Program-made: the position numbers and the translations under genes
Shown: positions 14,790 through 51,158 of the stretch, in pieces
Position numbering within the stretch: position 1 is the stretch's first letter
Layout: the number at the start of each line of letters is the position of its first letter
Assembly: GCA_041577935.1 (NCBI GenBank)
Contig: JBFGIA010000001.1
Span: 1-58,725 of the forward strand
DNA: 58,725 nt
Source of the DNA: Gemmatimonadota bacterium
GTDB taxonomy: Bacteria; Gemmatimonadota; Gemmatimonadetes; JACCXV01; JAHWKZ01
Direction: 5' to 3'
Notes under the pieces: model-generated
Told to the model about the DNA's origin: nothing
What the model saw: only the letters and a program-made list of their open reading frames with translations
Database searches by the model: none

Positions 14790-16196
14790 TTATTCGGTCG
14801 GGGCGAAGCCGCTCGGAGCGGGCACCGGCTGTGAAGCCGGGCGCTCGGGGGTTTCCCCGTTGCCCCAGTTGTAGCGGGTCCCAAAGCGGGTCAGCAGGAA
14901 CAACCCGAAACCGATCGTCAAGGCGGCGAACTGAATCACGATCCCGATCACCATCAGGATCACGCCAAAGACCCCAAACGGTCCCCCGATCAACCCGAGG
15001 GCGCTGCCAAAGAGCAGCAACACGCTGAGAAAACCAACACCGACCAGAATCGAAAGGTACGGGTTGGTGTGCTCCCACCCGAACCGACGCTCGGCTTCAT
15101 GCCCGACGTACTTGGCGACGGCAACGAAACCCAGCAGGATCCCGATCTTCAACGCCAGCAGCGCAAATGGGATGACGAGCAGCAATGGGATACCGATAAT
15201 CGAGATGGCGAGAATGACCACCGTCAGGACCAACACCGGGATGAGCAGCAGCCACGCGACCAACCCGATGGCGGTGGCCTTCCACGCCGAAGTCGCCATC
15301 CGGTACTCCATCCGTTCGATCGGGCCGCGCCCAAGCAGGAACAACAGGGCGACGATGAACGCCAGAAAGGCGATCCACAGCACGGTCCCGATCAACCCAC
15401 CGATATTCCCGATTATCGGGCTGAAGCCCCACTGGGGGTGGATATCGATATTCGGTCCAAAGGCGACCTCATTGACGGCGCCATGAACGACCGCCCCAGG
15501 CGCCCGATGGATCGTGCCACCGACCGAGGTTACCTCGCCTTCGACCACCGCGTTTGGGCCCAACCGGACCGAGCCGCCGACCGCGACGACCGAGCCATCC
15601 ACATGACCATCCACGCGGGCCGAGCCGCCGACCGCCACCACATCCCCTTCGACGTGCCTGCCAGCTGGAACGTTGACGCTTCCGCCGACGCGGACCTGGT
15701 CGCCTTCCTCGCTGATGAACGTGGCGCCCTCATGGTCCTCGTCATCCTGCGCCTCATCTGCTTCACCGGTCGCTCCGGCTGCGGTCTCGTCGATGGCCGC
15801 CGCATCGGTCGTCGGTGGCGGGCCGATCCCGAACAGGACGCGACGCGTGGTCGTGTCCATAAACGAGAGTCGCGTGATATCCTGGGCGTCGTCGCCGATG
15901 CGCTCGGTCAACTCGGCGCCAGTCACCGGTTCTCCATCGATGCCGATGGAGCCATTTGCCAACTCGATCGACTGCACATCCGTGCGGTATCTGGGCATCA
16001 GCACGACGCCGTTCTGAATGGGCAACACCTGGTACCGGCGCTCGACCCGGTCCCGTAGCTCACCCAACGTGGGTGCAACTTCCTGCGCCGCGGATCCCGC
16101 GGTCGCCTGCGCCAGACTGACCGGAGCGAAGCTCAACATGAGCAACGTTCCAAGCGTCAGGGCGCGCCAGAGATTCGTCGACGCGATCATCACCAT
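14790..16196 (-). CDS. membrane protein: periplasmic beta-helical (bactofilin-like repeat) domain + polytopic C-terminal domain
   Basis: Signal peptide, repeats VRVGGSVNVPAGRHVEGDVVAVGGSARVDGHVDGSVVAVGGSVRLGPNAVVEGEVTSVGGTIH, then about 6 TM helices. Third gene of the ECF sigma operon. Confidence 0.6.
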   Translation of the reverse strand: MVMIASTNLWRALTLGTLLMLSFAPVSLAQATAGSAAQEVAPTLGELRDRVERRYQVLPIQNGVVLMPRYRTDVQSIELANGSIGIDGEPVTGAELTERIGDDAQDITRLSFMDTTTRRVLFGIGPPPTTDAAAIDETAAGATGEADEAQDDEDHEGATFISEEGDQVRVGGSVNVPAGRHVEGDVVAVGGSARVDGHVDGSVVAVGGSVRLGPNAVVEGEVTSVGGTIHRAPGAVVHGAVNEVAFGPNIDIHPQWGFSPIIGNIGGLIGTVLWIAFLAFIVALLFLLGRGPIERMEYRMATSAWKATAIGLVAWLLLIPVLVLTVVILAISIIGIPLLLVIPFALLALKIGILLGFVAVAKYVGHEAERRFGWEHTNPYLSILVGVGFLSVLLLFGSALGLIGGPFGVFGVILMVIGIVIQFAALTIGFGLFLLTRFGTRYNWGNGETPERPASQPVPAPSGFAPTE

Positions 16197-19535: not shown

Positions 19536-20096
19536 ATGACGAGGATCGACGGCTCTGATCGCGGCGGCTCACCGTTGGCGCGGTACGCGTTTTGGGTCTC
19601 ACGTCGCCGGCACGGCAAGGTCACCGGGCCGCTCAAGCTCTACGCGCGCCATCCAAAGGTGCTGTACGGCGTTGGGCAGATGGAAATGGCGCTCCGTCGC
19701 GCGCGTCGGGTTCCCGTCAATCTGCGGGAGTTGGCGGTACTCAGGGTCGCGACGCGCGTCGGGTGTCCCTTCTGAATCGATATCAACGCTGCCGGGAGCA
19801 GCGACGTCGGGATTACCCATGAGCAACTCGAAGCGCTCCACAACTACGAGCGATCCGACGCTTTTTCCGCTCAAGAGAAAGCGCTACTGCGGTACGCCGA
19901 CGCGATGACAAACACACCGGCGGATGTCAACGACGACGTATTCACAGCTGTGGCCAGAGAGTTCACCGACGAGCAGGTCATCGAGCTGACCGCCTTCTTG
20001 GCGTGGGAGAACTTTCGAGCCCGGTTCAATCATGCGCTTGGGGTTGAATCGGATGGCTTCGCGGAGGGCGCGGCTTGCCCGCTCCCGACTGCCTAA
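19536..20096 (+). CDS. AhpD/carboxymuconolactone-decarboxylase-like protein with in-frame TGA (predicted selenocysteine) in a C-P-F-U redox motif
   Basis: ORFs 19521..19775 and 19905..20096 are in the same frame (offset 384 nt) with no other stop between them. Joined reading: ...LRVATRVGCPF-TGA(19773..19775)-IDINAAGSSDVGITHEQLEALHNYERSDAFSAQEKALLRYADAMTNTP... The TGA replaces the second Cys of the family CxxC. GGAGGA lies 7 nt before the ATG at 19536. Confidence 0.7.
19776..19814 (+). promoter_or_regulatory. candidate bacterial SECIS hairpin
   Basis: CGCUGC(19787..19792)-CGGGA-GCAGCG(19798..19803) is a perfect 6-bp stem that starts 12 nt after the UGA. The G-rich apical loop lies about +21..+25 from the U of UGA. 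Possible lower stems are AAUC/GAUU or CGA/UCG. Confidence 0.5.
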
Positions 20097-29729: not shown

Positions 29730-30509
29730 CTACCGCTGGCCGCTCGGAGGCGTCGCGCCACCGCTCTCTGCCAAGAACGCCTTCAGAAAATCGATCGGAA
29801 TCGGGAACAGGGTCGTCGAGTTGTTCTCCGCCGCGATCTCGACCAAGGTCTGCAAATACCTGAGCTGCAGCGCCTCGGGGTGTCTGGAGATGATCCCGGC
29901 CGCTTCGGCCATCCTTCCAGCGGCTTGGTACTCGCCCTCGGCGGTAATCACCTTGGCGCGGCGTTCCCGCTCGGCTTCCGCCTGCCGCGCCATCGCGCGC
30001 TGCATCTGCTGCGGCAAGTCGACGTCTTTGACCTCGACCTTGGCGACCTTGATTCCCCACGGGTCGGTGCCCTCGTCGAGAATACCAGCGATCCGGTCGT
30101 TGATTCGCTCACGCTCAGCCAGCAGCTCATCGAGCTCAGCCTCGCCCACAACCGACCGTAGCGTGGTCTGCGCCAGCTTGCTGGTCGCGTACAGAAAGTC
30201 CTCGACCTCGACGATCGCCTTGTCCGGGTCAAACACCCGGAAATAGACAACCGCGTTGACCTTCACCGACACATTGTCTTTCGTGATGACGTCCTGTGCC
30301 GGCACGTCCTGTGTGATCACCCGCAGGTCCACCTTGACCATCTTTTCGATGATCGGCCAAAGCCAGAAAATCCCCGGTCCCTTGGCGCCGCTCAGGCGAC
30401 CCAATCGGAAGATTACACCGCGTTCGTACTCCTTGAGAATCTTGATCGCGCTCATCGCAATGAACACAAGGAACACGAATACCACTGTCAGCGCGTTGAT
30501 CCCTGGCAT
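29730..30509 (-). CDS. SPFH/band-7 (stomatin-like) protein
   Basis: N-terminal TM helix, [17 protein letters not shown], and a C-terminal coiled coil [23 protein letters not shown]. Confidence 0.9.
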
Positions 30510-30512
30510 TTT

Positions 30513-31280
30513 CTACCTTCTCTCCAAGAGGTTCATCTCCAATCCCAAATCCGCTAGCCATTGCTGCCAACCGGCCATCGAATCGAGCAACATGTCAGGC
30601 TCATAACTGGCCAGTGTCTGCCGAGACGGATTTCCAGTCGCGACCGCCACGGCTATAGCCCCAACCGCGCGAGCACATTGGATATCGGCCGGCGTATCAC
30701 CCACGACTACCACCTCGGTGCCGCGGAAGCGACCGCCTGTCTTCGCTTCGGCCCGCTCGATCGCGATCGCCGGCAGCTGGTCGCGGCCGTGATCATCGGA
30801 ACCGAAGGCTCCCACCTCGAACGCGTCCCACAGCCCGAAATGATCGAGCTTGAGTCGGGCCCCCTGCTCGACGTTCCCGGTAACCAGCCCGAGCACGACC
30901 CGCGGATCGTCAGCCAGCGCTGGGACGAGCTCATCAACACCGGGAAACAAATAGTGGCGGGTTTCGGTCTCGAGCTCGATCGCCAACCCCGCCAGATAGT
31001 CATCAAACAGCCCCTGGAGCCGATCACCGATGTGACCGTCGGTGAAACCGGCGGCGCGCATCAGCTCATACACGATTTGGGGGTCGGTCTTGCCCGAAAA
31101 ATCGTTGTTGGGGGCGTCTCCCTCGGTCCCGAAGTGATCCAGGAGCGCCTGCCGAAACGCGCGCCGCGGGGCGCCGCCAGCTGAGAGCAGCGTTCCGTCG
31201 ATATCAAACAGGAAAAGGCGCTCGCAGGCCGGCACGGAGCCGAACATAGCCCCGCGGATCGGGGGCAACAAGCCGATCAA
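30513..31280 (-). CDS. HAD-superfamily hydrolase (phosphoglycolate phosphatase-like)
   Basis: Motif I LFDIDGTLL, motif III/IV VVVGDTPADI. Confidence 0.8.
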   Translation of the reverse strand: MIGLLPPIRGAMFGSVPACERLFLFDIDGTLLSAGGAPRRAFRQALLDHFGTEGDAPNNDFSGKTDPQIVYELMRAAGFTDGHIGDRLQGLFDDYLAGLAIELETETRHYLFPGVDELVPALADDPRVVLGLVTGNVEQGARLKLDHFGLWDAFEVGAFGSDDHGRDQLPAIAIERAEAKTGGRFRGTEVVVVGDTPADIQCARAVGAIAVAVATGNPSRQTLASYEPDMLLDSMAGWQQWLADLGLEMNLLERR

Positions 31281-31290
31281 GGGTCGTTTC

Positions 31291-32082
31291 CTAGGGCTCG
31301 CCCTCGGCCCGGTACCACCGAAAGAACAGAACCGTGATCGCCGTCCACAGGATCAGCCCACCGCCGATTTTCATCAGGATCCCCGCCAGCTGTTGGTCTT
31401 GCTGCTTGGTCATCCACCCAACCGGTGGCGCCAGCTCGTACGTCGCGTAGACCGGTAGCTGGCTAAACGTCAGATAGAGAAACGGCGCCGTCGAGAGGAT
31501 CGTGTTGGCGATCAGGTACGCGAGCTTCAGCGGATAGGAGAATCCTGGCCGGGCTGGCACCGGGGCCACGAGCGGCCACCAGAAGAGCGTCCCACCAAGA
31601 AACCACAACATGTCGATCGTGAACGAGCCCGCCTGTGAACCCATGAGCGCATCGACAACCGTGGGCCAATGGGTGAACACCAGAATCACATTGAACCCGA
31701 TGATCGCCACCAACGGATGCGTCCCGCGGGAGAGCACGGCGTGAAGAGTCGACCGCCGCCGCAGCGATGCGAACGCATCCGCTGGAACCCCGAGCAGCAG
31801 TAGCGCCGGAGCGACCAAGCCGACCAACAGGAACTGCACCATATGAACGCTGGCCAGATAGCCCGCCGCGAGCGCGCCGATCGGCCAATCGAGGGCCACC
31901 CAAACGACGCCCAAGCCGGTCACAAACGCGACCCCGCGCCAGCCAACCTGCCGCCAGCCGCCCGCATCGCGCACGAGCTTCAGGTACCCCACCGCCATGA
32001 CCAGCACCAGGACCCAGACCCCTACGTAGGGTCGCCAGGTCCAATCCCATGCAACTCCCTGAGCGGAGCACCACCATTGCAC
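31291..32082 (-). CDS. cytochrome c oxidase assembly factor CtaG-like membrane protein
   Basis: Polytopic protein immediately downstream of SCO1/SenC. GTG at 32082 lies 2 nt after the SCO stop. Its composition resembles the caa3-type CtaG family. The call is partly contextual. Confidence 0.55.
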   Translation of the reverse strand: MQWWCSAQGVAWDWTWRPYVGVWVLVLVMAVGYLKLVRDAGGWRQVGWRGVAFVTGLGVVWVALDWPIGALAAGYLASVHMVQFLLVGLVAPALLLLGVPADAFASLRRRSTLHAVLSRGTHPLVAIIGFNVILVFTHWPTVVDALMGSQAGSFTIDMLWFLGGTLFWWPLVAPVPARPGFSYPLKLAYLIANTILSTAPFLYLTFSQLPVYATYELAPPVGWMTKQQDQQLAGILMKIGGGLILWTAITVLFFRWYRAEGEP

Positions 32083-32084
32083 GA

Positions 32085-32744
32085 TTAGCGCGCCACCGCC
32101 TCGTCGCCTCGGGTCGCGACCAGAATCGGTAGATCGTGTACCCAATCCGCCTGTCGAGTGCCGAAGGGATAGGCGACCCTGGCCATCCCCGATGGCGAGA
32201 ATGCGAGCACCTGCGCCGCATGACCGACCTCATACCCAGTGGCTGGTTCGGAAGGGATGACACTCGGCGGCAGGTTCAGCTGGTCCTGAATCGCGGCCAC
32301 TTCCTCGACGGTTCCGCGGAGACCGACAAAGGCAGGATCAAAACGGTCGAGCCACTCGCGTATGCGGTCGGGCGTGTCGCGATCCGGATCGGTGGTCACG
32401 AACACGACTTTCACGCGGCGCCGCGTTTGCCAACCCACCTGGCCGAGGGCCGCGGCGATGTTCGCCATGTGAATCGGGCAGACATCGGGGCAGTGGGTGT
32501 AACCAAAGAACAGCAGCGTCGCGTAGCCTTCTGTCCGGGCATGGAAGTCGAAACCGACGCCCTCGGTGTCGATCAGGGAGAAGTCGGGCCTTGGGATCGG
32601 GTTTGCGAGCCGTGTCCCGCGCAGTTCGTCCGTAGGTTTATCGCCAACGCTCTCGCGAGCCGAATCCGCCCAACCGCAGCTGCTGGCTAACAGAAACACC
32701 AGCATTAGCGATCGAAACGCGGGGCGGCGGCGCACTGGGGCCAT
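32085..32744 (-). CDS. SCO1/SenC copper chaperone (thioredoxin fold)
   Basis: FFGYTHCPDVCP motif. Signal/lipobox-like N-terminus LLASSCG. Confidence 0.85.
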   Translation of the reverse strand: MAPVRRRPAFRSLMLVFLLASSCGWADSARESVGDKPTDELRGTRLANPIPRPDFSLIDTEGVGFDFHARTEGYATLLFFGYTHCPDVCPIHMANIAAALGQVGWQTRRRVKVVFVTTDPDRDTPDRIREWLDRFDPAFVGLRGTVEEVAAIQDQLNLPPSVIPSEPATGYEVGHAAQVLAFSPSGMARVAYPFGTRQADWVHDLPILVATRGDEAVAR

Positions 32745-32803
32745 GTGACGAATATTAAGCTGATCATCCGACGCCCGGCATCACCGCAACTGAAAGGTCC
32801 ACA

Positions 32804-33271
32804 ATGCCCACGCTCAAGGTCGGCGACCCAGCACCGGATCTCGATCTCCCCTCGACCGAAGACCAAAACATTCGGCTCGCCGATCTCGTGGGGAACGTGG
32901 TCGTGCTCTACTTCTATCCCCGCGACATGACACCTGGATGAACAGCGGAGGCGTGCGCCTTCAAGGGCAGGTTGCCCGATTTCACCAACTTGGATGCGAT
33001 CGTGCTCGGCGTTTCGAAAGATTCAGTCGCCAGTCACCGTCGCTTTCAAAAGAGATTCAGCCTGCCGTTCCCGCTGCTCTCCGACGCCGAGAGCGATGTG
33101 TGTGAGCGCTACCATGTGTGGAAGAAAAAGAAGCTTTTCGGGCGCGAGAGCATGGGGATCGAGCGCACCACGTTCGTGATCGACGAGACTGGCCGGATCG
33201 CGCACGTCTTTCCCAAGGTGAAAGTGAAAGGTCACGCCAAGGAAGTGCTGGCGGTGATCGCGGAGATGTAA
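32804..33271 (+). CDS. bcp: Bcp/PrxQ peroxiredoxin with in-frame TGA (predicted selenocysteine) at the peroxidatic Cys position
   Basis: ATG at 32804, then 45 codons MPTLKVGDPAPDLDLPSTEDQNIRLADLVGNVVVLYFYPRDMTPG, then TGA (32939..32941), then TAEACAFKG... in frame with ORF 32972..33271. Collinear with E. coli Bcp: YFYPKAMTPGCTVQAC vs YFYPRDMTPG-U-TAEAC. Total 155 aa. Confidence 0.8.
32947..32977 (+). promoter_or_regulatory. candidate SECIS region (two alternative hairpins)
   Basis: GGAGGC-GUGC-GCCUUC (32947..32962, 6 bp including one GU pair, GU-containing tetraloop). GGGCA-GGU-UGCCC (32965..32977, loop about +32 from the UGA). I cannot tell by eye which one is functional. Confidence 0.4.
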
Positions 33272-33306
33272 AAAGGGCTCCCTTCCGTATGGGAAGGAGC
33301 CCTTTT
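33271..33306. terminator. bidirectional rho-independent terminator
   Basis: AAAAGGGCUCCCUUCC-GUAU-GGGAAGGAGCCCUUUU: a stem of about 15 bp with one bulged C, A-run on one side and T-run on the other. It sits between convergent bcp and the HesB-family gene. Confidence 0.75.
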
Positions 33307-33330: not shown

Positions 33331-33687
33331 CTATACGCCGAACGACTCTCCGCAGCCGCAGGTCGACTTGGCGTTCGGGTTGCCGATCTTGAACCCAGCG
33401 CCGTTTAAGCCGTCCACGAAGTCGATGTTCGCCCCCACCAGGTAGGGTGCGCTGTACTTGTCGATCAAAAAGTCGACCCCGTCGATCACGAGCACCGAAT
33501 CGGTCTCTTTGTGATCATCGAAGCCGAGCGCGTATGAAAAACCGTGACAACCGCCACCTACCACGCGTACGCGAAGGCCCTTGTCTTCCAAGTTCTCTCG
33601 ATCGCGCAGCTCTTTGATCTTGGCGGTGGCCGTGGGGGTAACGGTCATCACCTGGTCATTACTTTGCACCTCGGCGATCTCAGTCAT
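33331..33687 (-). CDS. HesB/IscA-family iron-sulfur cluster insertion protein
   Basis: GGCHGFSYALGFD and C-terminal STCGCGESFGV. The second ATG (33687) has GGAGGAG 6 nt upstream. Confidence 0.9.
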   Translation of the reverse strand: MTEIAEVQSNDQVMTVTPTATAKIKELRDRENLEDKGLRVRVVGGGCHGFSYALGFDDHKETDSVLVIDGVDFLIDKYSAPYLVGANIDFVDGLNGAGFKIGNPNAKSTCGCGESFGV

Positions 33688-33770
33688 GCTATGCTCCTCC
33701 ATTCAGTATGGTATGTCTTTCGCCACAAAACGGTAACGGAGCGGGCGCCTCTCGTCAACGTTGTCGACTA

Positions 33771-34061: not shown

Positions 34062-36383
34062 ATGGCCAAAGCCTCGTTGGACCAGTACCTCACCTTCCTC
34101 ACCGAGCCCGACGCAGCAACCATACTCAAGCGGTCGAAAAAAACCGAGACCTATTACGACGATTCCCTCGCCGCTGACGTTCTGCGCAATAAGTACCTCG
34201 CGCCGGGCGAAGAAGGTCCGCTCGATTTATGGGAGCGGGTGGCTCGGGCGCTCGCTTCGGTCGAAGAAGACTCCGATTACTGGTTCGAAGAGTTCTTTGC
34301 GATCCTGTTCGATTTCAAGTTCGTACCCGGCGGCCGCGTCATGCACGGTGCGGGTCGCGATGACGCTCGGCGCAAGCCAACGCTCTCCAATTGCTACGTC
34401 ATCCCGATCACCGAGGACAGCCTCGAGGGCATCTACAGATGCCTTGCCGAGAGCGCGATGGTCTATCGCACCGGGGGCGGGGTGGGCACCGACTTGTCGA
34501 TCCTGAGGCCCAAGGGAGCCCCGGTAAACGCCACCGTCGCGGGTTCCCCCGGCTCGACCTCGTTCATGAACCTGCTGTCGGAGTCGACCAATACGGTGAG
34601 CCAGGCCGGACGGCGCGGAGCGCTCATGCTGACGATGCGCGTCGATCACCCCGACATCGAGAGCTTTATCACCATCAAGAACGACCAACGTCGGCGCAAG
34701 GTGGAGTACGCCAACATCTCGTGTCTGATCACTCACGAGTTCATGACCGCGGTGCTCGAAGACACCGATTTCGACTTGCGTTGGGGCGGCGAAGTCTTCA
34801 AGACGGTGCGGGCACGCGATCTGTGGCAGAAGATCATCGACAACGCTCACGCCAGCGCCGAGCCGGGGATCATCTTCTGGGACACGATGCGGGAATACCA
34901 CAACGTCGAATACGCCAACCCGATCGCTTCCACGAATCCCTGCGGCGAGCAGCCCCTGGCCGCTTACACCGCGTGCAACCTGGGATCGATCAATCTGTCG
35001 AGGTTCGTAGACCACGGAGGAACGCTGGATCTCGAGGAGCTTTCCGAGGTTGCCCGCACGGCAACTCGTTTTCTCGACGACGTGATCGATTACAACATGG
35101 ACAACCACGCGTTGAAGAAGATCCGCCGAGCGGTGGCGTCTGATCGCCGAGTCGGTCTCGGGATTACCGGGCTGGCGGACGCGCTCGCCCGCATGCGGAT
35201 CCGTTACGACAGCGAAGAGGCGCTCGAAACAGTCGACGAGATCATGGAGACGATCGCTCGCTCGGCCTATCAAACGTCGATCGACCTGGCGCGTGAGAAA
35301 GGCGCCTACCCGCTCTTCTCGTGGCCCGAAGTGTCAGACTCCAAGTTCATCCAGGCCTTGCCTGATGATCTGCGGGATCAGATTGGTGAGTTCGGGATGC
35401 GAAACTCGACCGTCCTGACCGTCCCACCGGTCGGCACTGGCTCAATCGTCGCTCAGTGCTCAAGTGGGGTGGAGCCGATCTTCTGCACTTCCTATAAGCG
35501 CCGCGTCAAGCAGGACGACGGAGAGACGTTCTCCGAGTACACCGTTTACCATCCGCTGGTGCAGGAACTGTGGGGCGGCGACGACGGTTTGCCCGACTAT
35601 ATCGTGACCGCACACGACATCGACCCCTACTTCCGCGTACGGATGCAGGGCGTGATCCAACGCTGGGTCGACTCTTCGATCTCATCCACGGTGAACCTCT
35701 CAACTGATGTTCCGGTGGAGACAGTGGCAGACATCTACATCGCCGCCTACCGGGCGGGACTCAAGGGGATCACCGTGTACCGCGAGGGCAGCCGTGAGGG
35801 GATCCTCGTGACCGAGACCACGGCAGAACCCAAGGCGGTCGACCTCAAGCCCGCCAAGCCGCGGCCGCGACCGGCAATCACTCACGGTGTCACCGAGCGC
35901 ATCCGCACTGGCGACGGAAACCTCTATATCACGATCAACGAGGACGAATCCGGCCTAGCGGAGGTCTTTGCCTCGCTGGGTAAGGCGGGGGGCACGGCGG
36001 CTGTGCAATCGGAAGCGATGTGCAGGCTGATCTCGCTTTGTCTGCGTTCGGGCCTCGATCCATCGGCGATCGTCAAGCAGCTCAAAGGGATCTCGGGACC
36101 CAACCCGGTATGGGACAATGGTGAGCTGATCCTTTCGGCGCCCGACGCGATCGGGCGCGCGTTGGAGCGTTATTTGGAGCGCAGCGGGCGTGGCACGAAT
36201 GGCAACGGTAACGGCCACACGACCGCCAACTCGGTCGCTCGCGCCGCGGCCGAAAACGACGAATTCCGCGGACCAGGGGCGATGGCGGCCAGGCCGATGT
36301 CGACGTGCCCGGATTGCGGTGGTCCCGTGACACACGAGAACGCCTGCCTGGTCTGCAAGCACTGCGGGTGGAGCAAGTGCTGA
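34062..36383 (+). CDS. nrdJ: adenosylcobalamin-dependent ribonucleotide reductase (class II)
   Basis: 773 aa. Active-site TNPCGEQPL. C-terminal Cys-rich tail CPDCGGPVTHENACLVCKHCGWSKC is typical of class II enzymes. Confidence 0.95.
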   Translation: MAKASLDQYLTFLTEPDAATILKRSKKTETYYDDSLAADVLRNKYLAPGEEGPLDLWERVARALASVEEDSDYWFEEFFAILFDFKFVPGGRVMHGAGRDDARRKPTLSNCYVIPITEDSLEGIYRCLAESAMVYRTGGGVGTDLSILRPKGAPVNATVAGSPGSTSFMNLLSESTNTVSQAGRRGALMLTMRVDHPDIESFITIKNDQRRRKVEYANISCLITHEFMTAVLEDTDFDLRWGGEVFKTVRARDLWQKIIDNAHASAEPGIIFWDTMREYHNVEYANPIASTNPCGEQPLAAYTACNLGSINLSRFVDHGGTLDLEELSEVARTATRFLDDVIDYNMDNHALKKIRRAVASDRRVGLGITGLADALARMRIRYDSEEALETVDEIMETIARSAYQTSIDLAREKGAYPLFSWPEVSDSKFIQALPDDLRDQIGEFGMRNSTVLTVPPVGTGSIVAQCSSGVEPIFCTSYKRRVKQDDGETFSEYTVYHPLVQELWGGDDGLPDYIVTAHDIDPYFRVRMQGVIQRWVDSSISSTVNLSTDVPVETVADIYIAAYRAGLKGITVYREGSREGILVTETTAEPKAVDLKPAKPRPRPAITHGVTERIRTGDGNLYITINEDESGLAEVFASLGKAGGTAAVQSEAMCRLISLCLRSGLDPSAIVKQLKGISGPNPVWDNGELILSAPDAIGRALERYLERSGRGTNGNGNGHTTANSVARAAAENDEFRGPGAMAARPMSTCPDCGGPVTHENACLVCKHCGWSKC

Positions 36384-43081: not shown

Positions 43082-44422
43082 TTGCCGAACCCATGCTCTC
43101 CGCGACGACCACCAACTGAAGCTATCAACGGCCGGGCTGCCCCTTTCGCTGCGCTCGTAACGGGTGCACTCACGCTCGTTGTTGTCAGCGTCGCGATGCG
43201 TGCCGGAACTGAACCGTTTGCGACATGGTATTACCCGTTAGCGTGGTTCCCCACGCTGCTCATGCTGGATGCGGTCGCCGCTCTCAGGGGTGGCGGCCGC
43301 CTCTTTTTTGTGGCCCGGCCAAACGCCATCCCCTCGATGTTGGCGTGGTCGGTGCCCTTTTGGCTCTTCTTCGAGCTGCTCAACTTTCGACTCGAGAACT
43401 GGTACTACGTCTTCGTACCCGACGACCCGGTGGCGCGGTGGGCGGGCATCGGGCTTTCGTTCGCCACCGTTCTGCCAGCGATTTTCCTAGCGGAGCGGGC
43501 ACTCGGCGGATTCAAGAATTCGAGCGACGCACCACCCCGTCGGGCCCTCAAACCCACTCCGCTATACGCGATCCAGTTGATCGGCGCGGCGGCGCTGTTG
43601 GTGCCGCTCGTCTGGCCCACCTTCCTTTTTCCGCTCGTTTGGGTCGGCGGTCTGCTGCTGGTTGACCCCTGGGTGTACCGGCGTGATCCGAAGCGGTCGC
43701 TGCTGGCCGATCTGGAGCGCCGCCAGCCGGGCCGTGTGCTGCGCCTGCTTGTCGGCGGAATGATGATCGGGCTCTTGTGGGAGCTCTACAACGTCAGCGC
43801 GCGCGGCAAATGGATCTATACCGTCCCCGGCCTCGAGGAGCTCAAGCTCTTCGAGATGCCACTGCTGGGGTTTTTGGGCTTCCCGGTGTTCGCGCTTGAG
43901 GGATTCGCCGTATATCAGGCGCTGGTGGTGAGCGGGCTGGCGGCGCCCGATCGCGGTCATGCCAAACCACCGTCGCATATCATGGTTGCACTGGCGGCTA
44001 TCCTCGCGATCGTGTTCTCGGCGCTCGTCCTGCTCGGTATGGAGCGGCACACGATCTCGTCGATGACACCACGGTTGGCCGATTTCCAGGGTGTCTCGTC
44101 GTCCGCGCTCGAACACGCCGGGTACGACATTTTCAACCTAGCCGAGGCGGATGCAGCATCGGTGGAGGCTAAAACCGGTCTTTCCGCCCAAACTGCTCGC
44201 GTCTGGGTCGATCGCGCTCAGTTGATCGTTCTGCGAGGGATCGGAAGTGAGAACGCGAAGCGACTGGAAGCCACCGGAATTTTCACGATCACCGAGTTGG
44301 CAGCCATTGATCCCGACCGGTTGGTCGAACGATTGCGCCGAGAACCCGGTCGTCCGGTGTATGCGGCGCGGGTTCGCGTTTGGGTCCGGGCCGCCCGCGA
44401 TGCAATCGGTGCGACACCGTAG
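43082..44422 (+). CDS. polytopic membrane protein with C-terminal helix-hairpin-helix (DUF4332-like) domain
   Basis: About 8 hydrophobic helices, then LRGIGSENAKRLEATGIFTITELAAIDPDRLVERL. The start is uncertain: a TATAAT at 43074..43079 would place the TSS inside the longest ORF, and the next in-frame ATG is at 43196. Confidence 0.6.
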   Translation: MPNPCSPRRPPTEAINGRAAPFAALVTGALTLVVVSVAMRAGTEPFATWYYPLAWFPTLLMLDAVAALRGGGRLFFVARPNAIPSMLAWSVPFWLFFELLNFRLENWYYVFVPDDPVARWAGIGLSFATVLPAIFLAERALGGFKNSSDAPPRRALKPTPLYAIQLIGAAALLVPLVWPTFLFPLVWVGGLLLVDPWVYRRDPKRSLLADLERRQPGRVLRLLVGGMMIGLLWELYNVSARGKWIYTVPGLEELKLFEMPLLGFLGFPVFALEGFAVYQALVVSGLAAPDRGHAKPPSHIMVALAAILAIVFSALVLLGMERHTISSMTPRLADFQGVSSSALEHAGYDIFNLAEADAASVEAKTGLSAQTARVWVDRAQLIVLRGIGSENAKRLEATGIFTITELAAIDPDRLVERLRREPGRPVYAARVRVWVRAARDAIGATP

Positions 44423-44481
44423 CAGAACCCGCCTCGCTGGCTGAAACCCTCGCAGCGGGATTACCGTACTGCCTACCGATC

Positions 44482-45411
44482 ATGCGTTTTCTACAGGCGA
44501 TACTCCTTGTCGTGCTCTCCACAGGAGCAGCGCAGGCACAAATACTCGACGGCTCGTTGTCGGGGCTGGCGTTTGGAGATGGCGTCGAGATCGCGCGTGC
44601 GACGCTCGGACCTGACTGCCGGTCGATCAGCGCATTCGATCTCAGCGCGCCGCGTCTCCCGCTCGCCGCCGAGCGCGAATCGGAGCTCATCTGCTGGAGC
44701 TACGCGAGTCCGGGTGGCTTGAACCTCGACACGCTCGTGCTGCGCTTCGCCGATGGCGGGTTGGTGATGGTCGAGGCTCGGGGTGAAAACGTAACTGCGC
44801 TCCTAAGCCCCGAAGAAGAAACAATGGAGTACGCCGGTTACGTCGGGTACATAGGACCGGACGAGGCGGTCGTGATCGACGGCGACGTGGCGTGGGTCGT
44901 ACGTACCAACGACATGCACTCGCATCCGTTTCTCGGATCTACGCCGGTAGTCACGGAGGAGGGTTTACCGGCAGCATCAGCAACCGCCCACAAGCCGCCC
45001 GACCTCGTCTTCGGCGCCTCACTCGATGAGATCCGCGAGACCTTCGTGCCGCAATGCGCGCGTGCGGTCGAGCGAGAGATTTCGCCACCCGGCCTACCGA
45101 ACCAACCTGAAAAACAAACCCAGATCGACTGCCTCGGCTTCCCTTACGCCGGGTTTCCACGCAAGGTCGAGGCGGTGTTTGCAGACGGGGAGCTCGCGCT
45201 CGTCTGGATCTTGACCGGTAAGCAGGAGGAACCGCGTGTCCGGGACGCCCTGATCGCGGCGTACGGCGAGCCAGTACGCGTCGATGAAGACTCCGAGGTG
45301 TTTGGCGATGGGAGCGTCGTCCTGCGCAAGGACAAGCCAGAGGTTCTGTTCCTCTCGGCGGAGTTAGCGCCGGCTTTCACCGAACCACAAGCCGAGCAGG
45401 AAACCCCTTAA
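44482..45411 (+). CDS. secreted hypothetical protein with internal two-domain duplication
   Basis: Signal peptide MRFLQAILLVVLSTGAAQAQ. FADGGLVMVEARGE and FADGELALVWILTG mark the repeated halves. Confidence 0.5.
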   Translation: MRFLQAILLVVLSTGAAQAQILDGSLSGLAFGDGVEIARATLGPDCRSISAFDLSAPRLPLAAERESELICWSYASPGGLNLDTLVLRFADGGLVMVEARGENVTALLSPEEETMEYAGYVGYIGPDEAVVIDGDVAWVVRTNDMHSHPFLGSTPVVTEEGLPAASATAHKPPDLVFGASLDEIRETFVPQCARAVEREISPPGLPNQPEKQTQIDCLGFPYAGFPRKVEAVFADGELALVWILTGKQEEPRVRDALIAAYGEPVRVDEDSEVFGDGSVVLRKDKPEVLFLSAELAPAFTEPQAEQETP

Positions 45412-49952: not shown

Positions 49953-51158
49953 TCATTCTGCGATCACGATCTCAGATGTCAGCGTGCGATGAACCGGGCA
50001 CCGACCGGCGATCTCCCGCAACCGCTGACGCTGGCCATCCGACAGCGAGCCCTGAAACTCGATGTCGACCGCGATCCTGTCGATCAGACCCTCTTTGGTC
50101 TCGCAATCGGCGCAATCCTCGGCATGCATCCGGTCGTGCGCGAGGCGGGCGATCGTTTTCGTCAGCGGCCAACCTTTTCGATCCGCGTACAGACGCGCAG
50201 TAATAGTCATGCAAGCGCCAAGCGCCGACAGCAGGAGCTCGTACGGGTTGGGACCCGTGTTGGTGCCACCCACGTCGAGCGGCTCATCGGCCGCGAGTCG
50301 ATGCGATGCGGTCTCGATCTCGACCGCGTACCCCGAACGACCGCCGCGCACTTCAACCGTTCCCAGGGGAACACGACCGGTGTGTTGATCCGAGGCCTCG
50401 GCGATCAGGTAACGCGCTGACCATACGGCGAGCAACCCGGCCACGAACCGAGCGTCACGAGGCTCACGCAGCAAGTGATCGGCGCCGTCCAGCGACACGA
50501 AACTCTTGGGATGCCGGGCCGCGTCGTAGATTCTTCGGGCGTGCTCGATCGCAACCGTCTCATCGGTCGGTGAATGAAGCACCAGCAAAGGCACCCCGAG
50601 CCCATCCAGCCGTTGCTCCACGTCCTGTGCCTCGAGATCCTCTAGGAATCGCCGCTTGATGGTGAACTTCCGGCCTTCGAGCTCGATTTCGGCCTCGTCT
50701 GCGGACGCCAACTCGGGCGCGCCTTGAATCAAGGATGCCCGCAGGTGTCTGGTATCGCTCGGTGCGCCGATCGTCGCGACCGCTTTGGCTTCCGGAATTT
50801 TGGCCGCAGCCAGAAGCACCGCAGCGCCGCCAAGGCTATGACCGATCAGGAGCCCTGGCGCTCGGTACTCGCGCCGCAAGTAGTTGGCGGCAGCCACCAG
50901 GTCGTCGACGTTGGATGAAAAGTCAGAGTTGGCGAACTCTCCCTCGCTCTCGCCCAAACCGGTAAAGTCGAATCGCAACACCGCCAACCCTTCGTCGCAC
51001 AACGCGCGGCTGATCTCTCGCACCGCGCGAAGATCCTTGGAGCAGGTAAAGCAATGGGCGAACAACGCGTAGGCGATCGGTTCGCCGGTCGGACGTTCGA
51101 GCCGCGCGGCGAGCTGCGCCGATAGTGCGCCTGGAAACGTCAGCTTCTCGGTCGGCAT
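49953..51158 (-). CDS. bifunctional alpha/beta hydrolase / OsmC-family fusion protein
   Basis: N-terminal hydrolase with GHSLGGAAVL. C-terminal OsmC/Ohr domain GGTNTGPNPYELLLSALGACMTIT ... GRCPVHRTL. Confidence 0.85.
   Translation of the reverse strand: MPTEKLTFPGALSAQLAARLERPTGEPIAYALFAHCFTCSKDLRAVREISRALCDEGLAVLRFDFTGLGESEGEFANSDFSSNVDDLVAAANYLRREYRAPGLLIGHSLGGAAVLLAAAKIPEAKAVATIGAPSDTRHLRASLIQGAPELASADEAEIELEGRKFTIKRRFLEDLEAQDVEQRLDGLGVPLLVLHSPTDETVAIEHARRIYDAARHPKSFVSLDGADHLLREPRDARFVAGLLAVWSARYLIAEASDQHTGRVPLGTVEVRGGRSGYAVEIETASHRLAADEPLDVGGTNTGPNPYELLLSALGACMTITARLYADRKGWPLTKTIARLAHDRMHAEDCADCETKEGLIDRIAVDIEFQGSLSDGQRQRLREIAGRCPVHRTLTSEIVIAE

Follow-up and report, generated by a model that had tools for sequence, protein, structure and literature searches.

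The sequence considered here is a 58.7-kb window (i.e. the whole of the stretch analysed) of the Gemmatimonadota contig JBFGIA010000001.1, and carries at 32804..33271 (+) a gene of 155 codons plus TAA for a peroxiredoxin (Prx) of the Bcp/PrxQ type, with an in-frame TGA at codon 46. In the list of open reading frames (ORFs) the gene appears only in two parts, one of 45 aa at 32804..32941 and one of 99 aa, with a TTG start, at 32972..33271. Read directly, the 45 codons beginning with the ATG at 32804 end in ...VVLYFYPRDMTPG (YFYPRDMTPG), the TGA occupies 32939-32941, and the frame then continues unchanged as TAEACAFKGRLPDF... (TAEACAFKGR...) up to the TAA at 33269-33271. An earlier prediction, made from the letters of the window alone (hereafter the original prediction), had given the same start codon, the same GAAAGG ribosome-binding site, 45 codons and an in-frame TGA, and these coordinates are borne out by the sequence. 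The features of the locus are collected in Table 1.

Homology tests of the product were performed with Cys written at codon 46. The protein so translated matches Pfam AhpC-TSA (PF00578) with an E value of 3e-39 (134 bits against a cutoff of 26) and, over residues 1-154, the NCBIfam model NF006960 (thioredoxin-dependent thiol peroxidase, the Bcp equivalog) with 147.2 bits against a cutoff of 140, whilst solved Bcp structures (PDB 5enu, and 5iph/3gkk for Xanthomonas BCP) are matched over residues 5-152 with E values of 3e-38 to 1e-34. Codon 46 aligns with the peroxidatic Cys of the ...YFYPKD.TPGCT... segment in 5enu and Xanthomonas BCP, and P39, T43 and R121, i.e. the remainder of the PxxxTxxC(U) loop and the Arg, are invariant alongside the TGA-encoded position across 12 translated orthologs. 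That a TGA takes the place of the peroxidatic Cys codon of a Bcp, as had been proposed, is thus confirmed by alignment with both the Bcp structures and the Cys homologs. The gene is intact and encodes a thiol peroxidase of the Bcp/PrxQ type, for which thioredoxin-dependent peroxidase activity is predicted. Membership of the PrxU family was considered and rejected: the score to NCBIfam NF040737 (61.4 bits) is so far below the cutoff of 270 that the protein is to be assigned to Bcp/PrxQ, and PrxU of Eubacterium acidaminophilum, which the original prediction had offered as a precedent, belongs to another Prx subfamily.

When the read-through protein was used as query, full-length Cys homologs were found at no more than 68% identity, many of them labelled Gemmatimonadota, together with a few matches of 99-106 aa, about 90% identical to the query and confined to its C-terminal 64%; on each of the contigs fetched for these short matches, ORFs of 45 and 99 aa lie in a single frame with a TGA between them. 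With the portion following the TGA as query, all 18 protein clusters at 79% identity or above were split at the TGA codon, leaving proteins of 99-113 aa (precisely 99 aa in 15 of the clusters), and below 79% there is a gap in identity, essentially all relatives at or under 68% being full-length Cys forms; two 114-aa exceptions in the latter range begin MTSGC, which includes the Cys. Of 80 loci given by a scan in which each GTDB species was represented by one genome, the seven closest have TGA at codon 46 (81-86% amino acid identity; six with the label Gemmatimonadota or Gemmatimonadales, the seventh with that of 'uncultured bacterium' only), and the alignment to Cys homologs that the original prediction had proposed as a check shows Cys at this codon in all 73 of the others. 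A scan of metagenome contigs for further TGA-containing orthologs yielded, among the matches listed, only Cys forms at 57% identity or less. In total, the TGA-containing group (hereafter the selenocysteine, or Sec, clade) comprises 15 distinct orthologous genes, drawn from seven GTDB species-level Gemmatimonadota metagenome-assembled genomes and from metagenome and Sequence Read Archive (SRA) assemblies.

The TGA is conserved throughout this clade, and the gene is under purifying selection on both sides of it. Zero indels and zero additional stops occur in the 15 genes, between which pairwise nucleotide identity is 78-92% (10-sequence matrix), and the Nei-Gojobori ratio of nonsynonymous to synonymous substitution rates (dN/dS) is 0.10-0.21 for codons 47-155 and, for codons 2-45, 0.10-0.34 in all listed pairs except that of the window gene with L001 (0.66). 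The window gene itself is identical at 468 of 468 nucleotides in three independent SRA-run assemblies, ruling out an assembly error; the original prediction had named TGC or TGT at this codon as evidence against it, and TGA is what all three carry. Reassignment of TGA across the genome was also rejected, since TGA is the ordinary stop for 14 of 43 window genes, as crudely called. Gene callers place separate 45-aa and 99-aa 'peroxiredoxin Q/BCP' ORFs in every assembly examined.

Downstream of the TGA the gene is constrained at the RNA level. Among degenerate codons for invariant residues, synonymous variation is found at 1 of 8 within codons 47-58 and at 58 of 69 in the rest of the gene (Fisher p 9e-5), and the longest synonymously frozen run, of seven codons, falls in codons 49-56 (permutation P 8e-4, 15 genes), both P values being approximate because the sequences are phylogenetically related. 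The frozen codons span two hairpins (Table 1), both of which the original prediction had described from the sequence and both of which are present in the minimum-free-energy (MFE) fold. Both also appear in a consensus fold (RNAalifold) of ten orthologs over 72 nt beginning at the UGA, with scarcely any variation between the sequences. The stem of hairpin 1, whose loop contains codon 51, is invariant in 9 of the 10 orthologs; the loop of hairpin 2 is GGU in the window and GGA in most orthologs, and the sole base-pair change is one G-C to G-U replacement, in hairpin 2 of L015.

The published model of the bacterial selenocysteine insertion sequence (bSECIS) specifies a loop of 3-9 nt on a stem of 4-16 bp, with G in the first two loop bases (PMC13188914), a UGA-to-loop distance of 16-37 nt and an MFE of -7.5 kcal/mol or below (PMC13188914). 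Hairpin 2 agrees with this model in loop, stem, G and spacing, and reaches a borderline -7.6 kcal/mol when 2-4 flanking nucleotides are included. The syntenic Cys orthologs lack it, reading F[QE]xxLP where the Sec clade has FKGR[ML]P, and no second convincing copy of its motif occurs elsewhere in the window. Hairpin 1, by comparison, is found in a 5-bp version in the Cys-form genes L177 and L179, with its stem disrupted in L178, and arises in part because a GC-rich genome here encodes the conserved E-A-C-A-F peptide. We accordingly regard hairpin 2, with moderate confidence, as the likeliest SelB-binding apical hairpin of a SECIS, to which hairpin 1 may contribute.

Together the position of the TGA, its conservation across the clade, the RNA-level constraint and the SECIS-like hairpins support the Sec-containing Bcp/PrxQ that had been predicted, and we consider it very probable that the peroxidatic residue of this thioredoxin-fold peroxidase is selenocysteine. 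A number of observations nevertheless weigh against such a conclusion. Hairpin 2 is short and on its own attains only -6.2 kcal/mol, and hairpin 1, at 11 nt, is nearer to the UGA than the bSECIS model permits (PMC13188914); the SECIS modelling that the original prediction called for therefore favours hairpin 2 in its geometry, leaves its energy borderline, and tells against hairpin 1 on account of spacing. RNAalifold identified zero compensatory base-pair changes in either hairpin among the ten orthologs, an absence of covariation that is due to both hairpins being almost invariant. The fold of a 62-nt segment here is not more stable than that of shuffled sequence (z -0.19), so that thermodynamics alone gives the structure no support and structure prediction by itself proves little; the pattern of synonymous change is the more informative evidence. 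Within the 58.7-kb window selA, selB, selD and tRNA-Sec were not found, whether with ARAGORN (no tRNA), Rfam (no match) or Pfam applied to 28 ORFs (no SelA, SelB or SelD), and Sec use in Gemmatimonadota is not documented in the literature searched.

Indirect support for a Sec trait is provided by a second redox gene in the window with TGA in the place of Cys (Table 1), to which the original prediction had also drawn attention. Its product matches a family that NCBI models as 'YciW-related (seleno)protein' (NCBIfam NF053654; E 5e-37, with 127 bits falling under the equivalog cutoff of 310), and its UGA at 19773 is followed, 17 nt downstream, by a 6-bp hairpin with the loop CGGGA. About 45 of 58 database homologs of this product are C-terminal fragments of about 105 aa, i.e. 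they are split at the same place as the gene in the window. A scan of the window for coding-like sequence flanking an in-frame TGA returned this site and the Bcp site as the only candidates with a redox motif. Use of selenoproteins in Gemmatimonadota, a lineage with aerobic respiratory genes, may possibly be evidenced for the first time by the Sec clade.

In the window protein a Cys (Cys51) follows the peroxidatic position (CP) by five residues, as does the resolving Cys of E. coli Bcp. The U-x4-C arrangement of the original prediction holds for this protein and not for the clade as a whole, the residue at codon 51 being C, L, R or H depending on the ortholog. On a neighbour-joining (NJ) tree of 14 Sec-clade genes, nine (L013, L015-L019, L173, L175 and L176) have L, R or H instead of the Cys, and rooting with the Cys orthologs gives at least four independent losses; L013 (Leu) and L011 (Cys), for example, are sisters at 98% support. 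By contrast, 159 of the 165 nearest Cys-form homologs (96%) retain the Cys at CP+5. The helix-3 resolving Cys of Xanthomonas BCP aligns with Gln in the window protein. The pattern of substitution suggests that the resolving Cys may be dispensable once Sec is in place, and would be compatible with a 1-Cys-type cycle. More tentatively, and at somewhat less than even odds in our judgement, it may have been Sec that made the CP+5 Cys dispensable, converting an atypical 2-Cys Bcp, with its intramolecular resolving Cys, into a '1-Sec' enzyme that an external thiol recycles directly. If the losses are functional, the clade would represent a natural experiment, the selenenic acid at the active site resisting over-oxidation and being easily reduced.

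Alternative accounts of the conserved TGA differ in whether, and as what, the codon is translated. The UGA might be recoded with a residue other than Sec, i.e. with Cys by a UGA-reading suppressor or allo-tRNA or with Trp by a near-cognate tRNA, in either case giving a full-length product; under any efficient recoding a conserved TGA and two conserved gene halves would be expected, and the failure to find Sec machinery within the window is in keeping with this. However, as TGA terminates 14 of the 43 window genes, recoding would have to be site-specific, which is what a SECIS provides, and each of the two sites in the window falls on a catalytic redox Cys of a family for which Sec forms are known. 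Insertion of Trp at the peroxidatic position, moreover, would leave the enzyme inactive, which is at odds with the invariance of P39, T43 and R121. Recoding with Cys or Trp is, in our estimation, very unlikely. Still less probable is a pseudogene created by nonsense mutation or an error of sequencing or assembly, to which we assign an almost negligible chance: a lone stop in an otherwise ordinary gene does resemble a fresh nonsense mutation, but the comparative data refute both possibilities, as the TGA is identical in the three independent SRA assemblies and is present in 15 diverged orthologs from at least seven species, with zero frameshifts or additional stops and with values of dN/dS that mostly lie at 0.1-0.3 to either side of the codon. 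The original prediction, too, had argued against chance nonsense mutations, from the two TGA-for-Cys sites 13 kb apart.

The remaining rival dispenses with recoding and holds that translation stops at the UGA and reinitiates at an AUG or UUG 30 nt downstream, so that the gene is split into polypeptides of 45 and 99 aa; the conservation of nucleotides would then reflect a ribosome-binding site instead of a SECIS. The sequence AAGGGCAGG[A/U]UG does resemble a Shine-Dalgarno (SD) motif with a start codon, an SD-like AAGGG being located in the candidate SECIS hairpin (32963-32974) and followed by UUG in the window and AUG in most orthologs; only AUG or UUG, both usable, occurs at this point in the 15 orthologs. 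It is because of this SD-like motif and start-capable codon at hairpin 2 that gene callers begin the 99-aa ORF there, and their separate annotation of the 45-aa and 99-aa ORFs likewise favours a split gene. On the other hand, the ten codons that separate the UGA from the AUG/UUG are in frame and free of indels in 15 sequences, and still spell the family peptide T-A-E-A-x-A-F, with codons 47 and 48 varying mainly at third positions (codon 47 also shows T/A replacement). A Prx without its peroxidatic residue has no reason to keep P39, T43 and R121 invariant, and the frozen stretch starts about 17 nt upstream of the SD-like motif. We consider a split gene improbable to a degree only slightly beyond that of non-Sec recoding, and retain insertion of Sec at the UGA as the preferred explanation.

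How Sec would be inserted and used at this position can be outlined, although here the insertion itself, the binding of the hairpin by SelB and the catalytic cycle are what we infer from sequence comparison. During translation a SelB-Sec-tRNA(Sec) complex would be recruited by a SECIS located within the gene just 3' of the UGA, most likely the GGGCA-GG[U/A]-UGCCC hairpin 28 nt downstream, with the GGAGGC-N4-GCCUUC hairpin possibly acting alongside it. The enzyme so produced would have 155 residues, its active site being formed by P39-x3-T43-x2-U46 together with R121, and attack of the selenolate on peroxide would generate a selenenic acid. In the window protein Cys51 could resolve this species as a selenenylsulfide, which would then be reduced by thioredoxin; in the orthologs that have no Cys51, roughly half of them, the oxidised Sec would be reduced directly by an external thiol in a 1-Cys-type cycle.

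In an NJ bootstrap tree of 65 sequences the Sec clade is monophyletic (100 of 100 bootstraps), and its sister group consists of the 45 closest Cys-form proteins, i.e. Cys-form Gemmatimonadota Bcp. Three Cys-form Gemmatimonadota genes whose loci were fetched (L177, L178 and L179) share the neighbourhood of the window gene: Bcp is divergent from SCO1/SenC in all three, CtaG, HAD and Band-7 genes each lie beyond SCO1 in two of three, and an ErpA/IscA-like gene is downstream of Bcp in two of three, followed in one (L178) by a class II ribonucleotide reductase. This shared syntenic slot indicates a switch from Cys to Sec in place, and a single such switch, on the stem of one Gemmatimonadota sublineage, would be the most economical reading of the sequences. 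For Prx in general, five independent Cys-to-Sec events were inferred in 2006, when the family numbered 12 selenoproteins (PMC1794560).

Upstream of Bcp in the window itself, 29730..32744 (-) is occupied by a conserved block of SCO1/SenC, Caa3-type CtaG, HAD hydrolase and Band-7/SPFH genes; the cytochrome c oxidase assembly genes among these imply an aerobic respiratory lifestyle for the probable Sec user. Convergent with Bcp is a complete gene at 33331..33702 (-) for an ErpA/IscA/HesB-like Fe-S insertion protein of 123 aa, which gives weak, sub-cutoff scores to the selenoprotein-type HesB models NF038090 and TIGR01911 and which, as it has no in-frame TGA, is a Cys form. Between these two genes lies a terminator-like hairpin (Table 1) that the terminator scan calls on the minus strand, the plus-strand tail, with 4 T only, falling below the scan threshold. 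Further downstream, 34062..36383 (+) encodes a class II ribonucleotide reductase of 773 aa with a TSCPD domain, the syntenic ortholog of which on the Cys-form Gemmatimonadota contig L178 (5287-7885) is at least 1147 aa long and contains intein/LAGLIDADG domains. Elsewhere in the window, 49953..51158 (-) encodes a protein of 401 aa in which an alpha/beta hydrolase (S33-like) is fused to an OsmC-like peroxiredoxin domain at the C terminus, and the ORFs at 14790..16196 (-; 468 aa) and 44380..45411 (+; 343 aa) have coding-like GC content at third codon positions with no Pfam match at E <= 1e-5.

Table 1. Positions in the window of the Bcp/PrxQ gene, its predicted recoding signals and associated features.
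Feature	Position	Strand	Details
Shine-Dalgarno-like GAAAGG	32792..32797	+	6 nt 5' of ATG; direct sequence reading
Complete Bcp/PrxQ peroxiredoxin gene, read through TGA at codon 46	32804..33271	+	translation, Pfam, NCBIfam, PDB, dN/dS
TGA, predicted Sec codon at peroxidatic position (codon 46)	32939..32941	+	in 15/15 distinct Sec-clade genes
Hairpin 1, GGAGGC-GUGC-GCCUUC, 6 bp	32947..32962	+	-7.5 kcal/mol; loop starts 11 nt after UGA
Codon 51 (TGC), resolving Cys at CP+5	32954..32956	+	in window gene; variable across Sec clade
Hairpin 2, GGGCA-GGU-UGCCC, 5 bp, loop GG[U/A]	32965..32977	+	loop starts 28 nt after UGA
Bidirectional terminator-like hairpin, A5-GGGCUCCCUUCC-GUAU-GGGAAGGAGCCC-U4	33270..33306	.	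between Bcp and convergent ErpA-like gene
Second candidate selenoprotein, AhpD/YciW-like, C-P-F-TGA (CxxU)	19536..20096	+	TGA 19773-19775, hairpin 19787-19803

Recognition of the Sec codon corrects a split annotation for a whole Gemmatimonadota clade and marks its members as probable users of Sec. The locus also offers a clean syntenic Cys/Sec pair within the Bcp/PrxQ subfamily, in which one downstream change of peptide and RNA, from F[QE]xxLP to FKGR[ML]P, appears to have created the candidate SECIS, with the resolving Cys then being lost repeatedly. It may accordingly serve as a small system for asking what a peroxiredoxin gains from Sec and how evolution of a SECIS proceeds within coding sequence that is itself constrained; general selenoprotein biology is unchanged by the finding.

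Sec-containing Prx with a TxxU motif have been known since the early 2000s, and the family has long had its place in the catalogues of bacterial selenoproteomes by Kryukov, Zhang and Gladyshev. Such proteins (PF00578, TxxU) are an established bacterial selenoprotein family (PMC13188914, PMC2398784, PMC1794560, PMC5029168), for which 253 sequences were found in the Global Ocean Sampling (GOS) survey (PMC2398784) and 78 organisms were counted in 2016 (PMC5029168), and which is listed in a 2026 review (PMC13188914). The present gene shares with the catalogued forms the Pfam domain, the PxxxTxxU motif, Sec in place of the peroxidatic Cys, the existence of many Cys homologs and a SECIS (here a candidate) within the gene 3' of the UGA. 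Neither a Sec form of the Bcp/PrxQ subfamily nor a Gemmatimonadota selenoprotein was found in the literature searched, and the main texts describing BSepDB and deep-Sep mention neither Prx nor Gemmatimonadota; as the catalogues consulted are not divided into Prx subfamilies, a Bcp/PrxQ-type Sec form cannot be confirmed in them, and novelty of the Sec subfamily cannot be claimed.

Amongst individual proteins, PrxU of Eubacterium (Peptoclostridium) acidaminophilum (NF040737), which is thioredoxin-dependent, likewise has Sec at the peroxidatic position, but represents a different subfamily, with a profile of 233 positions against a protein of 155 aa. The closer comparison is with Bcp of E. coli and Xanthomonas campestris (NF006960; PDB 3gkk, 5iiz, 5enu), with which the window protein is colinear over residues 5-152 and shares both the YFYP[KR]D.TPG[C/U]T loop and a non-catalytic Cys in ...VCE.[YF]GV. 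It differs from both in having predicted Sec for the peroxidatic Cys, and from Xanthomonas BCP in having Gln at the position of the helix-3 resolving Cys; within the Sec clade the CP+5 Cys is not conserved. Set beside these systems, the gene is a fairly ordinary addition to a long-known class of bacterial selenoproteins.

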